Under the pieces are notes generated by a model. The model made no database searches. It saw only the letters and a list, made by a program, of their open reading frames with translations, and was not told the origin of the DNA. A stretch of DNA of 64,000 bases from Raillietiella orientalis (taxonomy: Eukaryota), in contig JAYWIR010000027.1 in assembly GCA_036172245.1 (NCBI GenBank), forward strand, positions 2,852,001 to 2,916,000, in the 5' to 3' direction. The position numbers were made by a program, and so were the translations under genes. Shown here piece after piece: positions 9,205 to 46,700 of the stretch. Positions within the stretch are counted from its first letter, which is position 1, and each line of letters opens with the position of its first letter.

Positions 9205-10150
9205 ACCTCCCTCAAGAACATCAGGAACAGCAACGAACGAGCATTGTGGGAAGTGTCCTGCCTCATCCGAGGCAGGAGAAAACCATTGAAGGCGTGGACG
9301 ACTAGGGAGTTAGCGGCCGCTGCGACCCCGAGCGTCCCGTCTAAAGGAATTGTGCGCTTGGGCGAGGTGCCCGGCATACCTCCGGAGGAGGTGAAGTGGC
9401 CCCCAGCGTGCTGGGATAGTCTCACCCTGTCCCTGGAATGTCAGGAGACGGCGCTGCTAGTGTTCCATTGGGGACTCCTTTGCAAAGCACGCCTCTTCAA
9501 TTGGACATCAGGGACTGTGGATGCCAAGTGTGCAGGGTGAGGGGAACAAGAGACCTTCCCCCACCTCATCATCGAGTGTGTCGCCCTCCGACCCACGTGG
9601 GATCGACTGTCGGCGATCTTGAACATTCCCGAGGGCGACCCGAAGGACATTTTCCGTCGCCTCCTGATGCAGGACGCCCTGCCAGCAGCCGCGTGTGTGG
9701 CAGTTCTCTGCTGCATACGCGGGATGCTGGCAAAATGGACTGCGTCCAGGAGAGGACATAACAGCCGGAACGCCATCCAATGGGCAGCCCTCAACATTGA
9801 GAAAGCTTCCCGATGGTCCCGGCTGAGACCATTACGTCCGGCACTTATCCGCATCCTGAACAGGATGCAGAGAACCACTCGGAGCGATCAGTGATCCCTT
9901 CCCAGCCCTCCCTTCCCCGAAAACATTTCCCTCCCCTTGGTTTTCATTTGATTTTTCTGTTTTGTTTGTCGTTTTCCTTTCCCCATCGCATCCGGACAGG
10001 ATCTCTGCGGCCTGCGAACTGGCAGCGGCAAGTGTGTCAAGACAGACAGAACCACGGATTCTGTTTAAACTCATATAAGACTTTATTATGAAATTTTTAT
10101 TATGTAAAAATTTTAATAATAAATGCTTCGGCATATCCGGGTGATATATA
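9205..10150 (+). mobile_element. 5'-truncated non-LTR retrotransposon copy A (L1/Tx1-like zf-RVT C-terminus), inserted in the cob NUMT
   Basis: The frame reads LLVFHWGLLCKARL...DAKCAG*GEQETFPHLIIECVALRPTWDRL, a CxxC..E..H...C zf-RVT pattern, with stop at 9894. A T-rich 3' UTR, AATAAA at 10118 and the hairpin at 10125-10143 follow. It is flanked by tataatgta (9196-9204) and tgtaatgta (10151-10159). Confidence 0.85.
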
Positions 10151-10275
10151 TGTAATGTATCGAGACAGTGATGCCTGTAATTAGTTGAATAATAGAAAGG
10201 ACTCCTACGGGTGATCCTGGATTTCAAAAATGAGAAGTGTTCAAGGGCATGTCGACGTTGTGGGTGATTTTTTTT
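10151..10275 (-). pseudogene. cob: NUMT: cytochrome b 5' part
   Basis: Reads MPLNTSHFW(TGA)NPGSPVGVLSIIQLITGITVSMHY, matching the cytb PxNISxxWNFGSLLG...QILTG...MHY pattern. It joins the 8780-9204 piece at HY. Confidence 0.88.
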
Positions 10276-10289
10276 TTTTATTGAGGTTT

Positions 10290-10740
10290 GTCGATCGTTA
10301 GGAGAGCGAAGGAGTGTTCTGGATTGTAGGATTGTGTGCGGTGTAAGAATTATATTAACGTTGTCATGAGATATGAGGAAGGTACAGGTCATCGGGATGT
10401 TGGCTAGTGGGGGCAAGATTTCGGAGGAGAAAGATGGGGAGAGATGGATAAGATGAACAGGCACGAGGACCAGAATACGTGAAGAGGTTTGAGATTGAGT
10501 GGTTCGCTGTAGGTTAAAGATGTTATGTAAGGGAGAGTGAAGAAAACGCCTCCGATGTAGACGAGATAAAGGATGATGGCGTATCGTGAAGTTATGGAAA
10601 AGGGACTAGTAAAATGGTAACAGATAGGGAAGTAATAGAAAGTAGAAAGTCGTGATAATGGGATCGGCGTATGAGTAGAACGGGAGGATGTGATTATAAT
10701 TACGGTAATGCAAGGGGGTGTAGGTTGGCATGATTTTGTT
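10290..10740 (-). pseudogene. nad6: NUMT: NADH dehydrogenase subunit 6
   Basis: YAIILYLVYIGGVFFTLPY.TSLTYSEP resembles the ND6 LFLIYIGG..VLF.Y..SL motif. It lies directly upstream of cob on the same strand, a known invertebrate gene order. Confidence 0.78.
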
Positions 10741-10889
10741 GCTTGGAAGCAGGGGATCTTGAAAAGTAGTTGTTCCATAGGAATGCCTTGGGTTTCGATG
10801 ACCTTCGTAGCTGTAGATGAGACAAAGCATCGTGCATGAGGCTGGATAAAGAACTGGTACGTGAAACTATTCGGTCTCCTCCAGCAGCC

Positions 10890-11190
10890 ACCGCATCCAC
10901 AAAACGTCTGCTGTCGGTACGACATCAGAGTACCACAAGCGTATAAATACCAGCGGCAACCAATAAGGAGGCGAGCGCATACGTGCAAATCTGCAGGAGG
11001 GCAGACGCCGAGCACCTTCATGATGGAGGGAGATCAGTGTGCGTGCACTTTACAAAAAAACAACGACGAACGAACCCTCCAAAACGAATGTATGGGAAGC
11101 TTCTTAGAGATGACCCTGTTCGATTCCGGACACCAAGGAACCATCAAATTCTACGATGCTCCACATGTCTTCTGCTAACCCAAAGTTGAC
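10890..11190 (+). pseudogene. Probable degenerate CRESS-virus Rep N-terminal (HUH endonuclease) fragment
   Basis: EHLHDGGRSVCVHFTKKQRRT resembles RCR motif II (HLQG..VHFxKKQR), and an upstream CRYDIRV in another frame could be motif I. It is frameshifted and adjacent to the clear CRESS sequence. Confidence 0.45.
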
Positions 11191-11547
11191 CACCAAGCAC
11201 TGATGCATCAAACATCGATAGGTGTGGGTAGTGATCCAAACGACACCCTCAGAAGACCAACTCGCGCCGACGGTGTTGGAAGAAAACGGCGACCCATCAG
11301 TGAGGAGGTGCGCTGAACTCTCTACCTGATGCACCAAAGAGCACGGCAAAAATTAACAAAATGTAAACGAAAATCCAAGCGGCACATCGCATCTTCGCGC
11401 ACCCTCGAACCGAAAGCACAGACGGAAACGCAAGTGCAGTGCGTGCGCATTCGTCGAAGGGAATCCCTCTACTAGGGGTTTCCTCTCCCCTCCCGCAGCC
11501 ACCTTCCAGGTTAGCAGTGCGATTCACAGTGTCAGCAGCGGATTGTG

Positions 11548-12460
11548 GCGATGAGAAGCCGCGCCGAAAAAGGCCGGTCGGACGGTGACGTCACCGCCAC
11601 CATCTGCTCGTTCGTGAGGGAGGCGGCACCACGGCCACCTCTCACTGCCAGCAGCAGGATTTGCTCACATCCTCCGGAGGATGCTGAGGGATCCAGGAAG
11701 GAATCCTCGATCCTTTCCCTCCCCAACACGAGGGATGACCTGAAGTGGCCCCCAGCGATAACCGGAAGAAGGATCCTACCCCTAAAGTGGCAGGAGTCGG
11801 CGCTTATGCTGTTGCACTGGGGACTCCCCTGCAACGCACGCCGCCATCACTGGACACGGGGACGAGTGAATCCAAACTATGCCAGGAGTGGGGAGCGGGG
11901 ATCCCTCCCGCACCTCTTAGTTGACTGTGTTGGCCTCCGGCCCCTCTGGGAACGTTTCGGTACGACCCTAGGGATCGTGGAAGGTAGCCCTCTCAGAGAC
12001 GTTTTTCGGCTTTTCCTCGTGCGGGACGCCCTGCAGCCAGCCGCTGTCGCAGCAGCGCTCAGCTGCATCCGCGGTATTGTGGCGGCTTGGAGTGGATCCG
12101 ACGAAGCAGAAGATGCAAACGTCATGGAGTACGCAGCTCGCTTTCTGCGAATAGCAACCCGATGGCCCCACCTGGGAAATCTGCAGAAGGACCTCGTCGG
12201 CATCCTGCAAAGGATGAAAACTCCGCGCAGCGGACAGTGATCCCTTCCCGGCCCTCCAAAGAACTATGGTTTTTTGTTTTTCAGTTTTCCTTTATTTTGC
12301 TTGTTGCTTTTCCCACCCCCCTCCACTGACGTGGAGTGTCAGGTCGGAGTCTGCGCACCGACCACCCGGCAGCTCCCTAGTGCTATTGGCCGCAGCGGTG
12401 CCTCGTACCTCAAATACCGAAGGTTTTTTAAGAAACGCCCCGTCTTGACCGGGTGAAAAC
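11548..12460 (+). mobile_element. 5'-truncated non-LTR retrotransposon copy B (same family)
   Basis: Open frame to 12240 homologous to copy A (KWPPA...QESALMLLHWGLPCNARR...LPHLLVDCVGLRPLWER...LxxILQRM). 3' hairpin at 12437-12455. Candidate TSD gattgtg (11541-11547) / gattgcg (12461-12467). Confidence 0.85.
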
Positions 12461-13191
12461 GATTGCGTGGTCCTAGTGGTCACCGTGGATCGTTTTGTAG
12501 GAGGGTCGCGGTGTCCACTACAGCTGTTGGTTTGGATGCTGTTGCTAATCCGAAAGCGCCAGGGCAGATGGGACGTGTGACTGCGTGTTCTGTGCATGGT
12601 TACTTCGGTGACTGTTGGGATTGTTTTTCTTGGTTGGATATGTGTGGCATGTGTGACATGCATATGATGTTTCAAAAGATGCGTGTGGTCGGTATTCGTT
12701 ATCGCCTTGAAGTTTCGGATTATATGATGGGTGTTGAGACGACGCCCGAGTTAGATTTGAAGGAATTGCACTATGTGAAGAATTTAGCGTGTGGGCGGCA
12801 CCCTATGCAAGAAAATGAGTCTGCTGGTTCACCTGCTGGTCATGATGATATTGGACGGTATATCGAGTATTATCGTGGGAAACCTGGTGCGTGGCAACGA
12901 CGTATTGGGTTGTCTGGAAAGGGATCCGTGTATACTCCTGCTGTAGTTCAGTTGGAAACTACTTCGCTTGGGGGTATGTATATAAGGAGAAGGAAGTGCC
13001 CTTGGCTGGATACCGATAATTCGTATGATATGAAGGTGAGGGTGATGGGTTTGCGTGGGAGTATTATCAAGCATATTTCTGCTTTTAACGTCCCTGCCCC
13101 GTGGTTGGATGGCGTTCATTTCGCTCCTATCTGGCGTTTGCATCGTACAATTTATTTTCAATTTAAAAATGCTCGGTGCCCTGATTGGTGA
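12461..13191 (+). CDS. cap: Endogenous CRESS DNA virus capsid protein (circo/cyclovirus-like jelly-roll), N-terminus missing or displaced
   Basis: Uninterrupted 242-aa frame with MFQKMRVVGIRYRL, PWLDT and terminal TIYFQFKN, which are typical circovirus-like capsid motifs. It is convergent with a Rep gene. Confidence 0.8.
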
Positions 13192-13237
13192 AATACATTT
13201 TTATTGCTTTTATTGGAGTTCAACAATTATGCCTTCA

Positions 13238-13615
13238 TTATTTACGGTTAACACCGTTTTTTTTTCTCTGTGGGTCCTCGATTCGTTTCACTATCCATCG
13301 GTCTTCGCTGAGCTTGCTTGTGACTGGTTCCCAGTTTGCGAATATGATGACGTGTGGGGTGTTGAAGCATTTAATTTTTCTTTGGTACTTTGGGTCCATG
13401 ATGAGTCCGTTCTTGAGTGCCTCTATGAATCCATATTGTACTTGTTCGCGGTTGTCCCTGGTAAAGTCGATGATGATGATTTTATGCCCATTGAAGAGGT
13501 GTGCGGCGTCTTGCTTCCTACAACTTGTGAGGTATAGGGTGCCGCCATGCATGTAGAGATGCTTTGCGATTGTGTTTTTTCCACTGTTTCCTCTCTGATC
13601 GGCGTACCATCGATG
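13238..13615 (-). CDS. rep: Endogenous CRESS DNA virus Rep, C-terminal SF3 helicase domain (nanovirus/alphasatellite-like type), 5'-truncated
   Basis: WYADQRGNSGKN (Walker A), IIIIDFTR (Walker B), YGFIEALKNG...KY, HVIIFAN (motif C) and LSEDRW (Arg finger). Minus-strand AATAAA signals lie at about 13200-13214, between the two stop codons. Confidence 0.92.
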   Translation of the reverse strand, partial: HRWYADQRGNSGKNTIAKHLYMHGGTLYLTSCRKQDAAHLFNGHKIIIIDFTRDNREQVQYGFIEALKNGLIMDPKYQRKIKCFNTPHVIIFANWEPVTSKLSEDRWIVKRIEDPQRKKNGVNRK

Positions 13616-13619
13616 GCGC

Positions 13620-14391
13620 TGCCTCAGGGCAGCAGCGTGCGACAATAAGTGACGTGTGGGTGTCCACTCCAGCCAGCTGACCAGCGGGTGCTCCGATACT
13701 TCGCTTCCGGGGGCTGTTCTTCGGGACCGGAGGCGACCCTCTGCCCAGCTCCAGCGTTTCGGGACGCCGAGTCCGCCGTCCCGACGCGGAACGCACGAGT
13801 CCTTCCAGTGGACTCAGAACCCCCCAGGTGTGCCCCAAGAGGCCTACACTTTGATCTTAGCCAAAAGGCCGAGAAGCGAAGGCCTTTCGCCTCGGTCCCT
13901 TTGGTTACCCTACTTGGAGGACGGCAATCGAAAGGGAAGGGCAGGAGGAGGGGACCGCAAAAGGGCGCTCCACAGGACGGCCTGTTCCGGCAGGAGAAAC
14001 CCGCTATCCTGAAACGGGCCGAGCACACGTTGCCGCTCACTGCTGCACCTGCCGCCCTGATGCAGCCGTATCGGTTGCCGCGCAACGTCAGCAACCTCTG
14101 TACGGTCCTCCCACCTGTTGCTAATAGCAATGTTTGGCGCCTCGCACACGTTGTCGCTTATTGTTCACCCCACCCCACTTTTCCTGTGCGGACCTCAACG
14201 GACGGGCTGCTTACGAGAGGCAGCGCCTCCGGATATCTCCCTTCGTAGTGGAGGGCCACGAAACCTCTAAAGACATCCCCCTCGAAAGACATCTTTATAT
14301 AAAATATGACTGTTGTTTTGCAGATTTTTTTGTAATGTTTTTTTTCAAATTCTTTTTTACAATGAGCGCCCCGACGTGACCGGATGAAAAT
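13620..14391 (+). mobile_element. Divergent retroelement 3' end, copy C
   Basis: T-rich tail followed by the same terminal hairpin, gccccgacgtgaccggatg (14368-14386). The coding part is not recognisable and the left boundary is uncertain. Confidence 0.5.
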
Positions 14392-15099
14392 CCACCCCTC
14401 CCTCCCACCACACGAGTAGCAACGGCAGCCAGCCGTCCGACGTCAGCAAGCGGGTCGGATGGAGCGGCTCGGCGTCTGCCAACGACGGGCGTCGACGAAT
14501 GAAAAAAAAAAAAAAAAGAGAAACCCCTGTCGGGGAGCGCGGGAGCCACGACTATTCGGGTCCCCAAGCGGGATGGTGCCAGGAGGCAGCGGCGACCGCG
14601 GTGAACGATGGCGACTGCGTCGCCGCGGTGTTTGGGCGGATCAGCCGTTTGCCTGCAAGCTGTCCGTGCAGCAGGAGGCCGTCTCTCCACTTAGACGGCA
14701 GGGACCCCCTCGCCGGAGAAGGGCACTACCATTCAGGAGGGGAAAGAGAAATAGAGCAGGAGGGAACGAGAGGCTGCCACCCCATCATCCTCTTCCCAGT
14801 CGGAGCGGCCTACGTGGAGAGCACGCGGTGAACGCTGCAGCGAATGCGGGGCGCCACCGGCCTCTGCCGCTTCCGTGCCTCGCGCAGAAATCTCAACGGG
14901 CCACATGACCGGTAGGACGCGGGGCTTGCGGAGATGGAGCGCTGCGCTCCTTTGATCTCGCCTCTCGCCTCAAGGGATCCACGGTGTCGACGCGAATCGA
15001 GGGCGAAAGGTCCGGCAAAGCCCGTGCTGGGGACGTGGCGCCGTCCGCGAGCCACGCCAGGTAGGATGAGTGCGTGCGAACCCCCCATAAAGAAAGGGC

Positions 15100-16187
15100 C
15101 GTGCGGCCCGGTCTGCCACGAACCTGACCTTCCTCGTGACCCGAGACCCCGCTCATCGGCTGCTGCTCCTTCAAGTCCGTCCAAGGGAGCTCTGCTTACC
15201 CGCGAGCCCGAGGTTCATTGGTCCGGCTAGTGAGGGTTGGACTCGCGCGCGGGACAGCCGGGGCACCGTGAGGACTCGCCCTCCCGCCGAACGACCCCCG
15301 GGTCCAGAGGAACAGCGCGGACGTGATCAGAGCGCTTCTTGACACTCTGGAGAGGCACCGCCCCCCCACACCTAAAAAGGCAACACCCAGCCCCATGGTA
15401 CGACTTCACTTGTACAACCGGAGGGGAACCCCGAAGGGCTCCTTGATTCCTGAAAGGACCCCGGCGGGTCAACTTCCAATCCCGTCCAGTCAACTGGACA
15501 TCCGGCTTCCACTCCCCTACTTTTCCTGGTTGCTCTGCACTGCGACCTTCCATGCATGCAACGCCTGCCGGGATCATTAGACACGGGAGGGAGAGGTGGA
15601 CCCAAACTGTGGCAGGTGCAAGGAGCGGGAATCCCACCCGCACCTCCAAGTGAACTGTGTTGTCCTTCGGTCCCTTTGGGACGCTTTGCCGCGACTTTTG
15701 GAAGCCCCGGCGGCAACTCCAGGGACGTTGTCAAGCATCTCTGCCTGCGTGACGTCTCCACGCTGGCCGCATCTCCAGGAGCACTTTGCTGCTTACGCGG
15801 GGTCGTAGCTGCATGGAGCAGCAACGCCAGAGGAAGCCAGAGCAACAGGGACGCCATCTATTCTGCTGTCCTCTTCATGAGGACAGCGTCAAGATGGCCC
15901 AATCTGGGAACCATGAAACAGGAACTTGCCGGCATCCTTACAAGGATGCGGAGGACATCCTCCAGCACAAAGTGATTTCTTCCCGAACCCCTTCATTTTT
16001 TGACTGTATGTTTTGTTTTATTTATTTTTTTTCTTTTTGTTTGTCTTCCTTTCCCCTGTGCTGCCGAGGCGAACTCCGTTCCCAGCAGGCTCCTTCTCGT
16101 AGCTATAAGTAACGTGGCAGGATCAAACGCCCTGCCACACACGTTTACTTTTTATAAATAAATGCCCCGACGTGACCGGGTGTCAAC
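15100..16187 (+). mobile_element. 5'-truncated non-LTR retrotransposon copy D
   Basis: DPNCGRCKERESHPHLQVNC (intact zf-RVT), frameshifting into ALCCLRGVVAAW...ASRWPNLGTMKQELAGILTRM* (15975). AATAAA at 16157 and hairpin at 16164-16182. Left boundary approximate. Confidence 0.85.
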
Positions 16188-16345
16188 CAGTGTCGCACTC
16201 GAATGTAGGCCAAGCAGCATGATCTTTTAGGGGAAGAGACTGGAAACCCACGGCGCACCCACCATTTCTCTGCGTCGATTCTCCAAGTGGAGATTCGAAC
16301 CTGCAACGCTCGGTGCCACGCGCGAAGACCGCACGCACGCACACA
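16188..16345 (-). mobile_element. tRNA-derived SINE-like element, antisense to LINE copy D
   Basis: B-box GGTTCGAATC on the minus strand (16292-16301). The body aligns by eye with 32645-32800 and 42845-43008. Confidence 0.6.
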
Positions 16346-18812: not shown

Positions 18813-20723
18813 CTAATGGTGCTGACTGCTACTTGATTCTGCTTCTTGCTTTTTGATTTTTATCAGATGTGCCAGGTATTTGAATCTCTTCAGACACTCC
18901 TCCTAGAAAGTGACATCACACACTGAGATGGGTCTTACCATTTCCCTACCTTGTCCTTCCCCTCTACAGCATCTGCTATCCGATCCCACCTCTCCATGGT
19001 TCCTTTAGGATAGGTTACTAAAGCATGCTCCAAAGCGTGCTGTTGTTTCTGAGTCCAGCCATCTGCAACAAGATGCTGCATTTCTTCTGCTAACTGCTCT
19101 GAAAGCAGCACTGGCTTTGGAACTTCCTGGGTCTGTGATAGCTGCTGTGATTTGTAATCATTCTCTTTCATTTTTTTTGCCATCCTTGTAACTTCATACA
19201 CAGAACGATGCATTTGTTTGGCAATGATTTCCCAGCGTCCACTGTAGCCTCCAGGATAACGTTTCATGAGCTGTGCTAATTCAGCTACATCACTGTCTTC
19301 CCAAAAGCCGCCAGTAATATCAGAAGCCTGAAACTCGTGGCATTCTCCATCAATCTCAATCACTTCCTTGGTTTCTTCTTTTTCATACTCTGGATAACAA
19401 AAGTGCCAAGAATCCAAACTTGGCTCCCAGTACCTGCAATTTCTGGAATCACAGGTGCCTTCCAAGACTTGGTCCTCTTTTCGAATTTTGGCATAGATTG
19501 TTCTTTTGCTTTTTGCAACTTGGCTTTGTGAGCTGCTTTCCTATGCTGATGGATGGCATTTAGCAACTGTGGGATGTTAAACACCAACATCCGCAATCCT
19601 GACCACAACTGGAAAGGCCACAAGTTGGTGTAACTGAAAAATACAAGGGTACATCATTCATTAGAACCATAACAGGCCAAAGTGAATTCGCAAGTGGCCT
19701 TTCTGGTTTTGGACTAGAACTGGAATTCTGTGACAGGAAGGCAAAATGCCATGGGATGAATGAAGGATATAGGCAACAGTGGGGATTGGAAGTATCATGT
19801 GTAGTTACTTAACCAATGCTACATCATTGAAAGGAATAGGCAAAGAAACAAGGTCAACTTACTTGACTAGCATTTACCTCGGCTTTGGGATGTGAACACT
19901 TGAATGTTTCCTTCTCTGAGGCATCTGAAATGCATCCATTTAAACCACCATGAAATATGACCGTTTTGTATTTCTTCTCAGTTGATTAGATAAACAGATG
20001 CCAAAACTCACATAAAATTGTTTCTCATAGTAGGAAGCCCATGACACACCATACTGTCCTACGGTGAATATAATACAAAGAGTAAACAATAATTCCGTTA
20101 TTGAGAGCTTCTTAACACGTCTAAAATAGTACACCGGCTGTTTCCAGTTTGGTAAACCTTCTTCCAATATTTTTTCATATTTTTTCCTTTTCTCGTCATC
20201 ACGAAGGATATCGTGCACCGCTGTTAACTACAATTAGGCTGGCATAAGGAAAAACATCACATGCACGTTGCAGGAAAGCAATCAGACAAACTACCCAGGC
20301 ATCATATTTGTTGCACTGACCTGCCTAAATTTAATTTCGGCATCTGCTTCGGAATTTCTGTCGGGATGAAGTTTCAGCGACAGCTGTCTATAAGATTTTT
20401 TTATTTCTTTCACGGTTGCATTCTAAAAGAGATTGAGGATGTCGATCACAAGCTTTGTGTGAATCACACGTCAAACACTGTTTCCATCACACCCAAATCG
20501 TGAACACGAGTGGTGTGATCACCTTCACTGTCCACGTCCCATGGGGCAAAAATCCCAAGTGCAATCGTTCAAAACACAAACTTACTTTAGGAACTTGCAA
20601 CAGTTCGTAAAAGCTCTGATTGACTTCCTCCACCAAGTCGAACAATTCGAAGTCACTGAAATCCCACTCGCCACAGCATGGTGCCACAGGGATTAACAGG
20701 TACACGAAAATTTGGGACAGCAT
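18813..20723 (-). CDS. DNAJC1: DnaJ homolog subfamily C member 1 (ERdj1/MTJ1)-like, multi-exon
   Basis: Signal-like N-terminus, [24 protein letters not shown]-domain [32 protein letters not shown], a TM segment and two SANT domains ([44 protein letters not shown]). Short GT-AG introns. Confidence 0.93.
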
Positions 20724-23688: not shown

Positions 23689-24312
23689 AAGGACTTCATA
23701 AATAAAAGTTTTAAATACAACCTATTGAGATTAAATGAAGAATATCATCATCAAATCACATCGTAAAATCAATGATATACATCCGCCAAAATAAGTATAT
23801 CAATTAATTTGATCACATGCCTTTATTATCAGGGAGTGACCATCTCCTCATTGTTTCACGAGAAAGACTAATTTGCGATCTAAACTGGGCTTGGCAGGAA
23901 ACAAAAACAACAAATACAAAACAAACCCTGAACTGATGACTTAAAATCCTACAAGCAATTGGGCATTCCGACCACTTAACTCGAGTTTGATTAAGGAACC
24001 ACATAAGCATATAATACCTCTTGAGTATTCTTAATGTATATTGTTTACTCAGATTATCAAAGTTTTAATAAGCACATCAGGTAGCACACTTTCTTTGAAA
24101 TGTATGTTTTTTGTTTGCATGTGGAACATTCATTTATGAATGTTTATGCATGCCTCAGCTTACGAGCAGATGTGCACTGATTAGGTAGAAACATGCATTC
24201 TTAAGGATTATCTTCACAATTACCATATAACTCAGCCACTCTTGATTGGGAAAATGCATCAAGAACACTAAAAAACATGAGCGCCTCACAATGAAATCCC
24301 AGAATTCAGTAC

Positions 24313-25827
24313 TTATATGACTTGTGTTGCAGAACTCTGGCTCATATAAATGATAGCACCCACAAAATTAATTCCAGCTGCCAACCAGAAAACTGGGAAC
24401 CATCGACTCTGAGATGCAGTGACCAATTCCGCTGTTATGGGACCACATAAAATACCAGGTATGGTAGCCTAACAATTCATCTGAAATGCTACGAAAGCAC
24501 TATTTCTTACTCACCAGAGTGTTGGAAATAGCAAATGTAATACCAGCATGATTAGGAGCAACATCAGCATGATTGCTGAAATGTCCAGAAGAATTAAAAG
24601 CAAGTAAGGTCATGGATATGGTAATAAACCTGAAAACCAAAATGAGCTCCACTGTAAATAACAAGCTTACAGTACAGCAGTAGACAAGCTGCTAACACCA
24701 CAGAACAGCAGGAGAAACAATCCTGGACCAATCAATCCAATAAAAGTCATCAATCTTCGAACAGATAGCACAGTCCACTTATGACTAATCAGCCAGTCGG
24801 CTAAATGACCAGAAGCTATCAAAGATTCAGTACTTTGCTTTTTAATGTAACTTAAATCGTGCACACCTGCTGCACAAATGGAATTGAAGATATAAGGAAC
24901 AGCTGTCAAGCTCAAAGTAGGTGTTTGAACACCTAGACTACGTGTGAAGTAGGTGGGAAGCCATTGCATGACAACATAACTACTCCAATTCATAGAAAAA
25001 TGGGCAATATAAATGGCCCATAGGGGCCAGCTACAAATAAACTCAGACCAACGAATATTTGTTTTTGTTATCTAGCAATTTCATTTTGCCCGATCAACTA
25101 CATTTTGGTAAATTCACCTACCTTTGGCATGAAAAGAGGAATGTTATCGGAAAAGTGCGATGCTTCTGAATACAACAGGAGCCATAGACACATCCAAACT
25201 ACACCTAAACTTCCAAAGAGATAAAAGGACTGCCTCCAGGAAAGATGGGGGCAGATCTGAAAGCAAATAAAACCATCTTTGTCACCACAACCTTACCAAA
25301 GAAGCAACAGTCTGACCAATTGAACCAGCTGCTTGTAAATATCCATATGCACGAGATCGTTCCTCCATCATCATCTCATGTGCCAGAATATGATACATAG
25401 TAGGTAGCCCTACCACACTGCAAATCTTCTACTGCTTTCGTTATGTCTGATAGTTACCTAGAGCTTCCCCAATCCCCAAAACAACTCTTGATATTATCAC
25501 TAAAGTCAGGGAATTGCCAATAACAGGAATCAAAAGTGTGGATAATGACCATAGCATGACAGAAAATAACAGTACTTTTTTGCTATTAACATGGTTTGCC
25601 ACAAGAGCACCAACTATTTGGGATGAAAGGTACCCAAAGGCAAATGCACTAAGCACCCATCCTTGCCAGTATAAACTCCAATGATATTCATCAGTCATGG
25701 GAATTATGGCAATTGGCATAATCACTCTATCTGCAGCATTTATGAAATTTGCAAAGGAGCACAGAAGGATCAATCTTGGAGTTTTCGAATAAAAATTCCA
25801 TGTTTTTGGGCATTGGAACATCTTCAT
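24313..25827 (-). CDS. SLC17A9: SLC17A9-like MFS anion/nucleotide transporter, multi-exon
   Basis: NFINAADRVIMPIAI, LSAFAFGYLSSQIVG, RVVLGIGEAL, WLPTYF, VRRLMT, GHFSNHADVAPNHAGITFAISNT, ATIPGILCGP; short GT-AG introns; stop at 24313. The exact SLC17 paralogue is inferred. Confidence 0.85.
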
Positions 25828-28800
25828 TGTAATTAATTCTAGCAACAGGGCATCAAGCAAACATTTATGAAAGTCGTGGTATTGGTATGTAAGCACATTA
25901 AATAAAAACCACAATCATTCATTATTATAAATTCCAAACATCTGCAAAATAATGACAGGAGTTTTCAATGCTTAATTAAAAAATTGTGCTCCATGAGAAT
26001 TTACATTCACTTTTAATGCACTCTAATATTAGAAAGCAATTATAGTGACAAAAAATAACTACCACCCAATGGTTGATCATTTTTGCAGAGATTTACGTTC
26101 CTCACTTTTAAATTCTAACGAACCACACAAGACAAGCATGCAAATAAATCCAACAACTACTTACGTTTGATATTTTAATATTACGACTTTATTACATGTT
26201 TCACTCCAAGTAACCAACGTGCCACGAAATCAAGTAGTGACAGATGAAGTAGTCTTTCTGATGTGGCTAAATGAGTACAGGGAAATAAGGATTTTGTAAT
26301 CTATGTCACTTAAGTCTTGGACATGAGATGAGAAGTTAAACACCGTTGGTTCTCCATTGATTGTAGGGCACACATCACGGTTTCAAATCTTGATGGCCCC
26401 TTACGTGGAAACATCTGTTTCCTCATAAATCAAATTACAAAAGTGCAAAAAACACCAAGACACCACTTCCTGATCGATGAATTTGCAATCAATTGCCTAT
26501 AAATTCCGATTAGATGCTCGAAAGGAATAAACTGGAGTGTTCAAATAATCCGATGGGCAACTCGATGCTTTCCAACAGCGAGTCACCCTGATGGACAATC
26601 TGATGGACGAATCACCGATTTTGTTCCCATTTAAAAAAATTACTAATTGGCTAATACAGGTTCGTTCGAAGTGGCACCACTTCTCAATAGATCGTTCATT
26701 TAGTTACTCCTAGACCGTCACTATTATTATTCTTTTTTCCAATGGCAACCCACTTATTTCTCAATAGAGGAAGTTGGGTTTTGATTGCAAGACCCACAGC
26801 AAAATTGCTTCTGGGAGAAATTTTGAAAGACATTCTTTTCCTACTGTGAATCTACATAGAGTTATTCTTTGGAGAGCATCTGTTCTCCTAGAAACGTTCG
26901 TTTTTTCCCTAACTTAGGTTTTGCTATTTTGCCAGCTTCTTAGTTTAATGACATGACAGTCACGAACTTGATACCTGTGGCAGCTCATCTAATTCCTAAT
27001 GATAAGGGAACCACCTTGTTGCTTTCATTGATGGGGGGTGAGGGTTGCAGCAGTGGTGTAAAACACTTGAAAACTGCCTGGATTTTAAGAGCCGAAAAGA
27101 CCAAACTTAAAGAGGGTATCAACTGCAATGTACAATTTGCATGACCGTCATTGCAACCTTATTAGAACCATTTCCTTCTTTTTTTTTTTCCAATCATTCT
27201 TCAATGCAGTGTGTTTATTCTGCTTTTTTTTTTTGTGTTTTTGTTTGCTTGAGAGAAAGCCAAAGCTTCGCCCCCGAATGATGAAAATAAATTTCTTCCA
27301 GGCTGTGACTGCCTGGAAGAAATTTAAGGCAAAGTTAAAAGACTCGGGAGAGAATCAGCATATCATTTTTTGCATCCATTGCATAAATCAGGGCGGTGTA
27401 TTCTTGAAAATCCACGATACTTCATTGCATTCTGAAAAGGTTTTACGTCACGCCGGTTAGCCTCGACTATTTAGATTCCTTAGAGTGAAATCATCATTAC
27501 CAAAAGTTTTTTCACAAACATTATCCAAAGTCATTCTTTTTTTTTAAAAAAAAAACCATTCTTGGATATCCTTCTCCTAGATACTGGAAACATACTACTA
27601 TAAAACCAAAAGTCCGCAGCACTTGTGGTTATGCCATGGGCATGAAGTTCATATTTCTTTATGCCTCCCTTCAAAGGAACTATAGAGAGGAAAATAATCT
27701 TAAAGCCCCATTGTAGTTTCATGCTGAGAAACATTCTCCAGAAATTAGTGAATTTGAATGATTTCAGAAAAATTTTCTGAACTTTTCCATGTGCTTGCAG
27801 GGGGGCCTAATCAAAACGACTTCATTTCTACAGAATACGCGCAACTTCAAGAGCATCGTTAAAGGTGTATGGAAACAACTTTAGAGGAGCTTCAAGTTTT
27901 GTCGTGTACAAATTCACAATACTGCACTTGTATCTGGGAATATAAGTTCATCCTAACTGAAGAGAAAAATCTGTGCCACACCAGGATCTTTTTCCTCCCC
28001 CTATTTGAACAAGGGCTTGAAGCTGGTTTGTTTTTGTTTTGAGACCGCAACAACTTTCAGCACTCACGTGGATGGATGTACTGTTTCTACATGATAGGTG
28101 TAACTTTCTGGCAAACCAAAAAATAGGGGACTCAAATTTTCCAAGTCTTCCCACCGGTTGAATCTATCAGTCCATGTAAAGCTACTAAATCATGAATTAA
28201 TTGAATTTGAGAATCAAGGCAATGTTTCGTATTTCAAACAGGAATACCATGGAAAGTCAATAAATTTTGCTGATGTAATGTTAAATTGTGATCTTTATAC
28301 TGAATTCACTGAATCCATCTATCCCTATATTATTATTGGGATTTGCAGTTGCCTTAAATGCGTAGTTTATTTCGTAATTGTGTCTGAAATCACCTTCCGC
28401 AGACAAATCTACACGAATCTTTCATTAAATAACCCGAGGGACAAGATCCAACTTTAAAGAATGCAGGAAAGGAGCTCTCTCTATTCCTTTAACATCAATG
28501 CTGAGGGAAGTTACAGGTAAAGATTTCCAATAGGTACAAATACTGTTTGCACTCCTTCCATTGCAGGCTTCCAACACAATTGGAAGGAAACGAGATCACC
28601 TTATAAAACTTTACCGGCGGGATTGAACTTGACTGAACTGGAAAAGGGTATTGGCACTAAGGCAGTGTCAGCTTATAACTGATGTTTTTCATCTACCTTC
28701 ATTTTCATATACATAGAAACACTTCTAATGCATATGCTAATTCCATAATCATCTGCATTAAAAGTGATGCTTGTGGATGTCAAATACCACGGAATTCGAC

Positions 28801-32644: not shown

Positions 32645-32800
32645 AGAAAATTCCTGCCGAGCGGCTGCGACGGCCTCCGCGCACCGATCGCCGCGGTTTC
32701 GAATCTCTCCCAGGGGTAAGAACCAACGCTAAGAACGGGGGGGAGCGCCTCGGGAGTTTCGAGTCTTCCCCCGCCTCGTTTAGCCTCTTGCAGCACTGGT
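32645..32800 (+). mobile_element. tRNA-derived SINE-like element
   Basis: A-box-like TGCCGAGCGG (32655) and B-box-like GTTTCGAATC (32696) at tRNA spacing; ends cagcactggt. Confidence 0.6.
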
Positions 32801-34190
32801 TGACACCCGGTCACTCCGGGGCGTTTATTTATAAAGTAAACATCCACGTCTGTGGCAGGACGCTCGATCCAGCCACGAGAAGGAACTTGCCGGGAACTGG
32901 CACGCAGGTCAGCGGGGTTCGCCTCGGCAGCACAGAGGAAGGGGAGACAACAAAAAGAAAAAAATAAATAAAACAAAAAACATAAAGTGCAAAAAATGGA
33001 AGAGGTTCGGGAATTGATCACCGGGTGCTAGAGGGTGTCCTCTGCATCCTTGCAAGGATGCCGGCAAGTTCCTGTTTCGCTGTTTCCCGATGGGGCTATC
33101 TTGACGCTGTCCTCATGAAGAGGACAGCAAAATAGATGGCCTCCTCTGGAGTTGCTCCATGCAGTCAAGGTCCTGCCGCGTAGGCAGCAAAGTGCTGCTA
33201 GGGATGCGGCACTGTAGGAAGCTGGAAACCCCCGGGTGTCTTCATTGACTGGCCGGAGCTGCGAGTTGACCCTACGGGATCCTTCCAGGAAATCAAGGAA
33301 TCCTTCAGTTGTGAAGAGGGAGCCATCCCCTCCCTCATCCCTCGGGAAGAGGAACCCTCCATGGTGCACCACGGAGCTGGTTGATACCCATTCCCCCTCA
33401 GGGTGCTGCTTCTACGGAGTGTCAAGAAGCGCGCTAATAAATAAATTATGTATATAAATATTTTTATGTTACATAATAATATTAAAATTATATAAACTTA
33501 TGCTAAAATATATTAATATTAGTTAATTAATTACATTTGAAATTATAAAATACATATTTAAACTCCAAATAATTTTAGGATAAATTAAAGCAAATAAACT
33601 TTCACTACTTTATAAAAATAACTAACCAGGCCAAACACTTAAAAGATAAAATTCAAAATCCTTATCTAACTCTAATTAGGACTACCTACTCCCTTCGGGG
33701 TCCTCTCCAGAGGAAGAAACAGGGAGCAGATCCTTTCCGGGAGTCCCTCCGGAGAAAAAACGAGAAAGGGCTCCCTCTGGCGAGAATAAGGAAGAGGTTC
33801 GGAGCCATCCTGGATTCATAGGGTGCTCCCTTCGGGGTTGCCCATTGACGGATTGTGGTTTCTGTAGATGGCCGAGCCGCAACTCCTGAGCTCACAGCCG
33901 CCATGTTGCGAGTGAAGAAAACCATAACCGAGAGGGTAGACAAAAGGGGAGAACCATGGTCCAAAAGGGGAGAGGAAGGAGAAGCAGAAATGGTGGCGAT
34001 GCCACTGCAGCCTCGAAACACTCTTCTCTCTCGTCCAGAGTGACAGTTTACGAAGAGCTGCGAATACGCTAAAGCACCGACGCCTTTTCTGTCCCACCAG
34101 CCACCAACGCAGCGGGGGAGGTCCGCCACCGAGAGAATTCCGGGAGCGCACGGAGACTTCAAAAAAAGAGAGTGAGGTTTCTGATCCATC
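32801..34190 (-). mobile_element. Non-LTR retrotransposon copy E (minus strand), interrupted by an AT-rich insert
   Basis: The 3' UTR and C-terminal coding region are clearly homologous to copy D (15780-16190). Hairpin at 32804-32822 and AATAAA at 32824-32829. Confidence 0.8.
33435..33686. other. Very AT-rich insertion of about 250 bp, possibly a mitochondrial rRNA (rrnL-like) NUMT
   Basis: Sharp compositional break. The flanks (gagcgc / tcccttcgg) are contiguous in the paralogous copy near 43205-43225. The mitochondrial identity is only a resemblance. Confidence 0.4.
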
Positions 34191-43700: not shown

Positions 43701-46700
43701 GTCAGTGGTGACTGTCTTCCCATAAGGTCGCTACTGACCTTTTAAAAAAGAAAGAAAGAAACGAAAACAAAAACAAGGATCGGTGGCACGCGGCCGTGTC
43801 AAGGTCGTTCCTTTCGGTCGCGCCGTCCCGCATGCGGCACGGAAGAGTGTTCAACATCGTTCCGTAGTAGCGGCGGATACGTTTCCCTTTTTCGGCAGAA
43901 TCTTTCCCCTTGTTCGCCGAAGAACTCGCGGACCCCTCTTCCTCCATCCGGAAGCTTTCCATCTCGAAGGGGGGCGACCGCACGCCGTGCCGGACGACGT
44001 TGGGACGCCCACGATCCGTTGCCACCGGAGGGATTTGGCAGCTCTCTCGAGTCGCAGCCGATGGGTGTACGGCCAGCGAGCTCCCATGGTGGCGTGGTTC
44101 GGAGGCGCGGATCATTCCCTTTCGAACGGGAATGCTGACGTCTCGAGAAACCGGTCGGGGCAAAATGCAGCCCCGGTTCCCCTTCCTGGGGTCGCGCTTG
44201 TTCCTGGCCAATGGGTCAGGGAAGAAGGGGAGGAGCGGGGCAGAAGCAGCCGCGCGAGGAAACCGCCGCCGCCAAGCAGGTCTCTGCGGGAGGTGTCTCT
44301 TCCTGCCCGGGGGCATCGTCGCTCGCGTGATCGCGATGCTGCCAGACAGCAGCGCCTCCTGCTCCCCCCCTTTCCGACCCCCAGGCACGCCCGCGCCGGC
44401 GACGGACGGGCACCGGGTTTCTCCGACAGCCTGCGCCCCGCTTCCGCTCCGGCAGGGCGTGGCCTCCCCGCTCAAGACGGGCTGCACCACCCTTCCTCCG
44501 CTGCTACTGTTGCCGCCGCCAAACGGAAGGCGTCCCTCAGAAAAGGACGTGGGTCGATCCTTCGCCGTGCTGAGGAAACTGCAGCCGAAGGGTCCCCTGG
44601 TCAACTCCGAGTTCTATGCCGGGTGGCTGGACTACTGGGGCTACCCCCACTCGACGGTCGGCACCGACATCTTCGTCAGGAAGCTGGAGGACATCATCCG
44701 GAGCGGGGCGTCCTTCAACGTCTACATGTTCCACGGAGGCACCTCCTACGGTTTGACCACCGGTGAGCACCCGCCCGACCCGAGGCCAAGGACGCGACTC
44801 TCTCAGGCTGCAGCTACTCGCCGGGCTTTCGGTGCTGCACGACCTCCTACGACTACGACGCCCTCCTCGACGAGAGCGGCGACCCCACGGAAAAGTACCA
44901 CGCCACCAGGCAGCTCCTGGCCAAAGTAAATGCGCGCGCGCGGGGGAGAGGGAGGGTGCTTTCTGGATCGCTAGGGGGGGGGGAATTAAAGGAGGAACCC
45001 TGCCTCCCCGGGAGGCAGGGACTCACGCGCTCCGGTTTCCCCCCCCCTCTCTCGTCACCACCTCTCCCTTGCTTCCCTCCCCTCCTCCTTCCTTACTTCG
45101 AGGTGGGGGAAGGGGTCCGAAAACGGACCTACTGTCCCCTCCCTTTCGTTCCCACCCCTCCAGGGACGCATGACACGCCCCACCTTCCTCACGCTCCCGA
45201 GAGTGAAAGCGCCCTCTTCGTCGCGTTTCCCCCCTGTCTCCACGTGCGGCGCTCCAGCAGCGTCTGGAGCGCCGCACGCATCGCCGCCCGACGATTGCCT
45301 GGAGCTGCACCACCAGGGAAGAGTGCCATGCTCCCGCCTTAGACGCCTCAGTTTCCGCCCGGTGAGCCGGGACCGGGTCGTTGCGCGGTGACCGACCTCT
45401 CTCCGGGCAACCGCCTAGACGGGAGCCGGCGCCTCGCCGCGGGGCAGGCAGATCTGCTCCGAGGGCCACCTCTCCAGCAGTCAGCGACCCGCCCCACATT
45501 CTCGAGCACCCGGCGGGACCTCTGGTCCCCTCTCTTTCAAGGTCGCCAGCGGGTGAGGCGACGACTTCCTCCCCCCTGCTCGCATGCGCGCGGGCGGGCA
45601 GGCAGCGGAGTTCCTTCCCCCCTCCTTCCTTCCAGTACTTCCCGGTTCCCGAGGGACCTGTCCCGGGTCCCATCCCGAAGGGCAAGTACGGCAGGGTCCA
45701 GATGCATTACGTGGCGTCCCTGGAGACGATCATTGATCAGCTGTACTGCGAGGAGCACACGAGCCCGCTGACCTTCGAGGACCTGGACACGCCGGAGGGC
45801 TTCGTCCTGTACTCTGCCCTGGTGACGAACCCCGTGCCAGACCACTCTCTGCTGAGCGTCCCTGGTCTCAGGGACCGCGGGTACGTCTACGTCGACCAGG
45901 TCAGTGCTGCGAACGCCTCGTGCTTTCTGTTTGCGGCGTCGCAGCCACCTGCGTGCTCTGTGCCGGCTGAGATGGCAAGGAGTGAAGTCACGCGTGTCGG
46001 CGAGTGAAGTGCAGGCGTGATGTATGTGTGACATGTGTGTGTCTCTAATGTATGTATGATGCATTTTTGTGTACGATGCGCGTGTATGTGTGATGTATGT
46101 GTGTGGTGTGTTTGATGTTTGTGCAGTGTGTGTGTGATGCGTGTGATGTGTGTGTGTATGCAGTCAATGTGTCTGTGATTTCTTCGCGACATATATGTGT
46201 GTACGATGTATGTATGTGCAGTATGTGTGATATGTACGATGTGTGTGTGTGGTGTGTAGAATGTGTGTGTGATATATGTGTGTGCGCGGTGCATGTGGTG
46301 TGTACGACGGATGTGTGTGTGTATATGTGATGCGTGTGTGTGTCATGTTCACGTCCGGCTCTATCCAGACCTTCGTTGGCATCCTGAGTCGAGTAAGCGA
46401 TGTGTTTTCCATCTCCTTGCACATTCAGCGCTGGCAGACAGTGTCTATCCTTGTGGAGAACCAGGGAAGGATTTTCTACGGAGCGGGAATACACGATCCG
46501 AAGGTGAGGCGCTTCCTGCGATGTTCGGGGGTCTCCAGGGAGGACGTGTGGCCTCCTTTTCCCTCTCCCCAAATTTGCTCCTAGCCTCCCATTTTATCGT
46601 CGTTCCCTGTGCCGTTCCAGGGCATCCTCGGGGAAGTAACCCTGTCTGACTTCGTCCTCGCCAACTGGACGATGTGCCCTGTGCCCATTCTAGACATCAT

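Follow-up and report, generated by a model that had tools for sequence, protein, structure and literature searches.

Layout of the locus

The DNA analysed here (the window) comprises 64,000 nucleotides of contig JAYWIR010000027.1 from the Raillietiella orientalis assembly GCA_036172245.1. Our subject is a small island within it, at positions 12466-13609, that carries two open frames facing each other: one encodes part of a replication-associated protein (Rep) of the kind found in DNA viruses whose genomes are single-stranded circles that encode Rep (CRESS viruses), and the other a capsid-like protein. The island stands out in composition, with a GC content of 45.8% against 58.7% and 59.1% in its two flanks, and its plus strand is rich in G+T. 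The frames converge tail to tail, the capsid-like one stopping with TGA at 13189-13191 and the rep frame with TAA at 13240-13238, which leaves a gap of 46 bp. Within this spacer the rep strand has two AATAAA polyadenylation signals (read as TTTATT on the plus strand, at 13200-13205 and 13209-13214), and the cap strand has only a variant, AATACA, at 13192. An earlier note on this DNA had reported two open frames ending 46 bp apart with poly(A) signals between them, all of which we find in place.

Host sequence lies on both sides of the island on one contig and the viral genes are disrupted (Rep is truncated), as in an endogenous viral element (EVE). We regard it as very probable that 12466-13609 is such an element, namely a 1.15-kb sub-genomic piece of an ambisense CRESS-DNA virus (Cressdnaviricota) (Table 1). 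The earlier note had further proposed that both capsid and Rep are retained in the native convergent layout; this stands for the tail-to-tail pair, but of Rep only the helicase part is present, matching positions 142-264 of a profile of 267.

Table 1. Coordinates of the viral island and of the features around it (positions are those of the window).
Feature	Positions	Strand	Remarks
Capsid-like open frame	12466..13191	+	241 codons plus TGA stop; first ATG at 12568
Tail-to-tail intergenic spacer	13192..13237	.	46 bp
CRESS Rep 3' part, SF3 helicase	13238..13625	-	homology, profile, alignment, model
LINE-like 3' fragment, copy b	11515..12465	+	C-terminal ORF remnant 11515-12240 plus 3' UTR
Probable second, decayed Rep-helicase remnant	10980..11225	+	tblastn, two frames, frameshifts and stops
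U2 snRNA 5'-end copy, 36 nt	13845..13880	-	Rfam U2; flank context, not viral

The Rep helicase fragment

On the minus strand a frame of 191 codons is open from 13813 to 13238. Its resemblance to Rep is confined to the final ~123 codons (13609 to 13241); these are the codons that the earlier note had counted as about 125 and assigned to a superfamily 3 (SF3) helicase. Similarity to Rep begins between 13625 and 13609, upstream of which the frame stays open to 13813 through GC-rich, non-viral DNA, and no ATG lies upstream of the helicase in its frame. Frame residues 69-191 align with residues 222-341 of the 446-amino-acid Rep of L001, a 3.8-kb IMG/VR contig (39% identity over 123 amino acids, E 9e-24). 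Likewise, a profile built from 20 full-length Reps of relatives, when searched against 2284 six-frame pieces of the window, matched this frame with E 1.6e-38 and found no other match below E 1 (next best E 1.9). Together with similarity to all 27 of the viral loci described below, this match upholds the claim that the DNA is of CRESS type. By its alignment, the fragment covers the helicase domain, beginning a little ahead of Walker A and running to the C-terminus. The HUH endonuclease domain that forms the other half of such proteins was not found in the window, either by profile or by tblastn with the full-length L001 Rep. One candidate for a decayed nuclease domain, at 10100-10850, was set aside after giving only chance-level tblastn matches (E 4-22 in a 1.7-kb database).

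The sequence motifs quoted in the earlier note (DFTR, LKNG, FAN and LSEDRW) are all present, and Walker B (IIIIDF), KNG, motif C (IIFAN) and LSEDRW align with those of relatives. Walker A, in contrast, reads G-N-S-G-K-N and departs from the GxxxxGK[S/T] pattern, so that the GKN already pointed out stands against GK[S/T] in 21 of 21 aligned relatives. A model built by AlphaFold from a 22-row alignment (pLDDT 81.7) is predicted to have an SF3/AAA+-like fold: its Foldseek neighbours in the Protein Data Bank (PDB) are papillomavirus E1, poxvirus D5/E5, RuvB and MCM (E 4e-4 and weaker), and its neighbours in BFVD are CRESS Reps (TM 0.83-0.86).

An open run of 123 codons is unremarkable by chance, being reached in 626 of 2000 dinucleotide shuffles of 12466-13609, and the frame is therefore notable only for what it encodes. 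Several searches with it returned nothing. Word-indexed homologue searches gave no matches at near or longer lengths, the PDB sequence search gave nothing relevant, and a helicase-only profile matched no PDB chain at E ≤ 10, including the PCV2 Rep chain 7lar. Scans of metagenome contigs yielded 114 pattern matches with the fragment and 175 with a two-sequence alignment, none of which was confirmed.

An initiator ATG is missing at the start of both the helicase frame and the capsid-like frame, and no replication origin of the NANTATTAC type occurs on either strand of 9900-14500. Short inverted repeats that were considered as an origin-like stem-loop lack the NANTATTAC motif and fall outside the viral part, in the tail of a neighbouring long interspersed nuclear element (LINE; copy a) or in the right flank. 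As the HUH half, the origin and the start codons are missing and Walker A is atypical, the fragment cannot replicate or act as a virus. It is a dead fragment, not a genome.

Relatives and viral lineage

An IMG/VR scan with a pattern built on the two-sequence alignment found 75 stretches that fit, 28 of which encode a relative; these represent 27 distinct loci (L001-L027) of 2.0-4.7 kb. The window Rep matches an open reading frame (ORF) in all 27, with E values from 6e-26 to 2e-13 and helicase identities of 32-44%. Alignment A2 joins the window helicase fragment to the Reps of 17 relatives, and Pfam Viral_Rep was detected in 16 of these 18 sequences. The window protein shares with these Reps, and with the CRESS Reps of BFVD, the motifs WY.D..G..GK, hydrophobic-D-[FL]-.-R, KNG, PHVIIFAN and LS.DRW. 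It differs from them in that N stands where their Walker A has S/T, and in having no nuclease domain; the capsid candidates of the IMG/VR relatives are also all unlike that of the window.

Top matches in BFVD are 36-42% identical and bear the labels CRESS-DNA-virus sp., uncultured virus and Cruciviridae sp. The window Rep had earlier been called nanovirus- or alphasatellite-like, a label no better founded than 'unclassified CRESS'. Nanoviridae M-Rep and alphasatellite Reps do belong to the same Rep superfamily, and in structure the M-Rep and satellite Rep of banana bunchy top virus (BBTV) do match the window fragment (TM 0.80-0.81, with E about 1e-9 to 1e-8). In the fold search of BFVD, however, the BBTV M-Rep comes only 31st (28% identity) and the BBTV satellite Rep 49th (29%). 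Some 30 unclassified CRESS Reps precede them, and a smacovirus Rep is about as distant (30%). Nor does the genome type fit. Nanovirus components and alphasatellites are circles of ~1 kb with one gene each, whereas here a cap-like gene and rep are contiguous. Comparison of the relatives' nuclease domains with the PDB was about evenly balanced between 6h8o and 2hwt (both E 8e-14) on the one hand and 2hw0 and 7lar (E 2e-12 to 5e-12) on the other. We take 2hwt to be a nanovirus Rep domain, with aligned residues identical to those of 6h8o, and 2hw0 and 7lar to be from PCV2. Chain 7lar was matched through the relatives' nuclease domain only.

Likeness to the Circoviridae (PCV2) is of a similar, partial kind: they have the same ambisense, tail-to-tail layout of two genes, and their capsid family gave the only Pfam lead for the second frame, but that lead stays far below its cut-off (see below) and the helicase profile misses the PCV2 Rep.

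A helicase tree left 13 of 19 inner branches open. It paired the window sequence with L001 (83/71), a grouping that we did not use, as it unites two long branches. Moreover, 71% of unclassified Reps are reportedly nuclease/helicase chimeras (PMC5923481), and a fragment that consists of the helicase only is thus not assignable to a family. The donor virus is of an unclassified lineage whose helicase is ~40% identical to those of uncultured CRESS and crucivirus-type Reps.

Several of the relatives are two-gene genomes of 2.0-2.7 kb with capsid candidates of 245-267 amino acids; over all relatives these candidates range from 172 to 537 amino acids, eight of them between 245 and 267. Of the 20 scanned, those of L012, L014, L017 and L021 belong to the S-domain capsids of tombusvirus type, matching Pfam Viral_coat with E 1e-15 to 1e-18. 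These four contigs are crucivirus-like genomes that combine the window's type of Rep with an S-domain capsid, and clustering adds L015, L016, L019 and L020. The crucivirus-like contigs measure 3.3-4.7 kb (L021 3.3 kb, the others 4.2-4.7 kb). In L002, the closest helicase relative, the capsid candidate at 108-908 on the minus strand has a weak, below-cut-off match (E 3e-4) to TNV_CP, the coat protein family of satellite tobacco necrosis virus.

The capsid-like frame

From stop to stop, the plus-strand frame covers 12457-13191 (244 codons; 242 in the earlier note). It opens inside a LINE tail, from which its first three codons derive, has TTG at 12463, and reaches its first ATG only at codon 38. 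The N-terminus holds a short basic stretch only, without an ATG, and most likely the start of the capsid gene has been lost, cut by the LINE at 12465/12466. Taking the longest open run in any frame as the statistic, we found a run of at least 242 codons in just one of 2000 dinucleotide shuffles of 12466-13609 (observed 241, mean 114, maximum 252), so that this frame, unlike the helicase frame, is notable for being open at all.

We consider it likely that these 241 codons encode a CRESS capsid. In place, orientation and size the frame corresponds to what small ambisense CRESS genomes carry as their second gene. Among 24,736 Pfam families, the sole meaningful lead was Circo_capsid (PF02443), aligned C-terminus to C-terminus (residues 174-239, 66 residues, against profile positions 168-223 of 224), and all leading sets among its Atlas language-model neighbours are clusters annotated as single-stranded (ss) DNA virus capsids or as hypothetical proteins (Cressdnaviricota), the best at 0.95. 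An orphan capsid is, besides, normal in this group, as 13 of the 20 capsid candidates of the relatives likewise have no Pfam match at E ≤ 1.

Several results count against the assignment. The Circo_capsid match (E 0.035) scores 14.8 bits where the gathering cut-off is 36.2, and recognition by Atlas, at 2248, falls short of the mark of 2300 set for that tool. Phmmer against 1.84 billion representative proteins gave no match at E ≤ 0.001, the PDB sequence search gave nothing relevant, and no ORF of the 27 related contigs is similar to the capsid-like protein. Its single-sequence AlphaFold model is unusable (pLDDT 29.5, pTM 0.17). Further, the 5.8-billion word index and a scan of IMG/VR viral contigs returned no match to the protein, and hhalign against ten capsid clusters or singletons of the relatives gave probabilities below 1% throughout. 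Of the identity first proposed, then, position, size and openness speak in its favour, whereas the Pfam score does not reach the cut-off and the Atlas neighbours are weak evidence.

These failures of every sequence search, the Pfam score and the unusable model would all be expected if the frame were not a capsid at all, being instead another viral ORF or a product of the G+T-rich composition of the strand, and asymmetric composition alone indeed gives shuffles a mean longest run of 114 codons. We nevertheless think this improbable, given that the observed length was so rarely reached in shuffles, that position, orientation and size match the second major gene of ambisense CRESS genomes, and that the single Pfam lead and all leading Atlas sets point to ssDNA-virus capsids.

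An ATG-initiated, highly basic ORF of 50 codons lies at 11326-11475 on the plus strand, ~100 bp downstream of the decayed Rep remnant described below and just before LINE copy b; it resembles the Arg/Lys-rich N-terminal arm of CRESS capsids. That it is the N-terminal arm of the present capsid gene, split off by the LINE, was not supported: the only word common to the two junctions is TGCGTG (11440 and 12464), and the frame is not kept.

Edges, LINE copies and a probable second Rep remnant

At the left edge, the terminal motif of LINE copy b ends at ~12465 and viral DNA begins at 12466 without a spacer. Copy b has 66% nucleotide identity to 9384-9911 and 44% amino-acid identity to copy a, and its 5' limit is uncertain, lying between about 11450 and 11670. 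An alignment of four 3' ends shows the terminal motif again at 14368, at 16164 and, on the minus strand, at 32822. On the right, similarity to Rep ends at 13609-13625 and is followed by GC-rich DNA, a fragment of U2 small nuclear RNA (snRNA) and a further LINE end at ~14368-14395. The U2 match (Rfam, listed span 13825-13880 on the minus strand) scores 32.8 bits with E 1.4e-4, below the gathering score of 46, and corresponds to the first ~36 nt of U2 snRNA, the rest of the gene being missing; ~230 bp separate it from the point where Rep is cut off. The copy may be the head of a short interspersed nuclear element (SINE) or have arisen when a LINE reverse transcriptase switched templates. No family reached its gathering threshold in an Rfam scan of the whole window.

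The window holds at least five 5'-truncated LINE-like copies (9384-10090, 11515-12465, 14250-14395, 15454-16192 and, on the minus strand, 32794-33210). Common to them are a C-terminal ORF, in which a C..C...H....C motif occurs, and a 3' untranslated region (UTR). The UTR tail, ...GCCCCG..TGACCGG.TG..., is conserved in four copies and absent from copy a. No Pfam family matched the LINE ORF remnants, and a scan of 169 long ORFs of the window revealed no reverse transcriptase (RT) domain.

Because no target-site duplication was found for the LINE, the order of events, virus first and LINE second, can only be inferred. The viral DNA might alternatively have arrived as RNA by way of the LINE machinery, either by 3' transduction from the upstream LINE or by template switching, the LINE reverse transcriptase having passed between the RNA of the LINE, a read-through transcript of the virus and U2 snRNA. 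Such a route would account for viral DNA that begins exactly at a LINE 3' terminus with no spacer, for the missing duplication, and for the 36-nt U2 5' fragment past the other end. Chimeras with snRNAs are a hallmark of LINE template switching. We hold this route to be quite improbable: cap is in sense but rep in antisense, so that one RNA could span both only by reading through convergent poly(A) signals, the right end has no poly(A) or microsatellite tail, and the U2 piece is on the strand opposite the LINE with 230 bp of unrelated DNA in between.

To the left of copy b lies a second region similar to Rep. In the whole window, tblastn with the window Rep matched 10971-11066 (E 6e-4); in a 1.7-kb sub-database it matched 10980-11066 (E 1.4e-5) and, collinear but in another frame, 11116-11169 (E 0.05). 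A relatives-only profile gave 3.7 bits there, in a collinear position (hmm 56-91), and the whole-window profile search did not recover the region at E ≤ 10. From these alignments, 10980-11225 is probably a second, much older and heavily decayed Rep remnant in the opposite orientation.

Between LINE copy a and this remnant, 10050-10950 is strongly purine-rich on the plus strand and lower in GC, and its pyrimidine-rich strand has open frames of 257 and 209 codons without a Pfam match. This part could be further decayed viral DNA.

Host context

The viral piece is embedded in eukaryotic, repeat-rich DNA. Spliced GH35 beta-galactosidase exons occupy 44540-45910 on the plus strand, where the Pfam-matched stretches are separated by gaps of about 60 to 840 bp within roughly 1.4 kb; among solved structures their best match is mouse and human GLB1 (E 4e-23). 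By the same comparison, an MFS exon at 25444-25914 (minus strand) is closest to sialin/SLC17 (E 2e-9), and an ORF with two SANT domains at 18938-19540 (minus strand) is closest to DNAJC1 (E 7e-9). Over the whole window the observed/expected (o/e) ratio of CpG is 0.9 and the GC content 50.6%. The surrounding genes and composition probably fit a non-vertebrate animal host. The link to an animal host that had been drawn earlier is accordingly plausible from the exons that best match mammalian GLB1, sialin and DNAJC1 and from the CpG ratio, but is not demonstrated.

Composition within the window is uneven, as 24001-28000 has 37.6% GC and a CpG o/e of 0.42, against 0.76-1.09 in most 4-kb blocks.

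Integration, age and possible constraint

On our reading of 12466-13609 as an endogenous piece of an ambisense CRESS-DNA virus, a double-stranded replicative form, whole or in part, would have been joined into the chromosome by non-homologous recombination, with the right-hand break falling just upstream of Walker A. A LINE would later have inserted into the already resident viral DNA by target-primed reverse transcription, removing the start of the capsid gene. The decayed Rep remnant 1.3 kb leftward suggests that a related virus had inserted here before, in a separate event.

A few observations sit less well with this reading. Both junctions (12465/12466 and ~13610-13625) are known from the assembled contig alone, and no target-site duplication was found at the LINE. 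The window Rep is on a long branch (2.25 against a median of 0.53), and the invariance of the HVIIFAN motif among the 27 relatives is there by construction, since all were retrieved through that pattern.

The insertion is either young in neutral terms or constrained. Across both frames, 146 of 3276 single substitutions create a stop, and the chance of finding none has dropped to 5% once about 0.06 substitutions per site have accumulated, and earlier still with indels included. Most likely both frames are still open since little neutral time has passed.

Selection is the other way to keep frames open, the viral sequence having been co-opted by the host as, for example, an antiviral decoy or a dominant-negative helicase. 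It would explain why 364 codons are free of stops and frameshifts while the neighbouring Rep remnant is badly decayed, and why the helicase frame remains open for another 68 codons into host DNA, like an exon fused to host sequence. There is also a precedent in avipoxvirus, where captured Reps with inactivated catalytic motifs are described as being under purifying selection (PMC10193959). Against this, neither frame start has an initiator ATG, open frames are expected anyway in an insertion that has gathered less than about 0.06 substitutions per site, and the length of the terminal branch on which the helicase sits is as compatible with relaxed evolution as with deep divergence. We give co-option a small chance, and a slimmer one to its strongest form, in which the capsid-like protein and the Walker-A-altered helicase have been selected as a domesticated pair in a non-vertebrate animal, which would also assign a host to an orphan CRESS lineage for the first time. 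If that form were true, the pair might serve, for example, in defence against related circulating viruses, and would come from an orphan lineage whose helicases group with crucivirus-type genomes of unknown hosts.

Finally, that the assembly wrongly linked a host contig to an exogenous CRESS virus present as a contaminant, as assembly-only junctions and frames as intact as those of a live virus would allow, is very improbable, for a live virus would have a complete Rep with its HUH domain, an origin and start codons, none of which was found, the left junction coincides exactly with the point where a host repeat ends, and a second, decayed Rep remnant is nearby.

Comparison with known endogenous elements

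The earlier note had held that most reported endogenous CRESS elements are Rep-only. This is the case for circoviruses, whose fixed sequences in vertebrates derive mainly from rep (PMC6372831), but pairs of Cap and Rep have been published. Krikovirus (Draupnirviridae) EVEs occur in snakes, lizards, turtles and insects and have been used to infer hosts of orphan lineages; 17 of 36 Cap-like krikovirus EVEs are paired with Rep-like EVEs and were read as whole-genome integrations (PMC10193959). Whole CRESS genomes are likewise integrated in Entamoeba and Giardia (PMC7493932). With paired elements and whole integrated genomes thus on record, the present element adds another example.

Like those pairs, it is CRESS DNA in a eukaryotic chromosome with capsid and Rep adjacent. 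It differs from them in having only the helicase part of Rep and a capsid-like protein without a detectable relative. It differs also in that its frames are stop-free, whereas the published example has three stops in Cap and seven in Rep.

Significance

The element is truncated and inactive, and nothing about it points to a new mechanism. Its interest lies in its lineage, of which no near relative has been sequenced: nothing found exceeds 44% identity to the helicase, and a search of 1.84 billion proteins gave no homologue of the capsid-like one. Very many circular ssDNA viruses are orphans that only metagenomes have revealed, and endogenous CRESS elements provide one of the rare means of linking them to an actual host. 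The present locus offers such a host lead for this lineage, as well as sequence with which its exogenous relatives may be sought.

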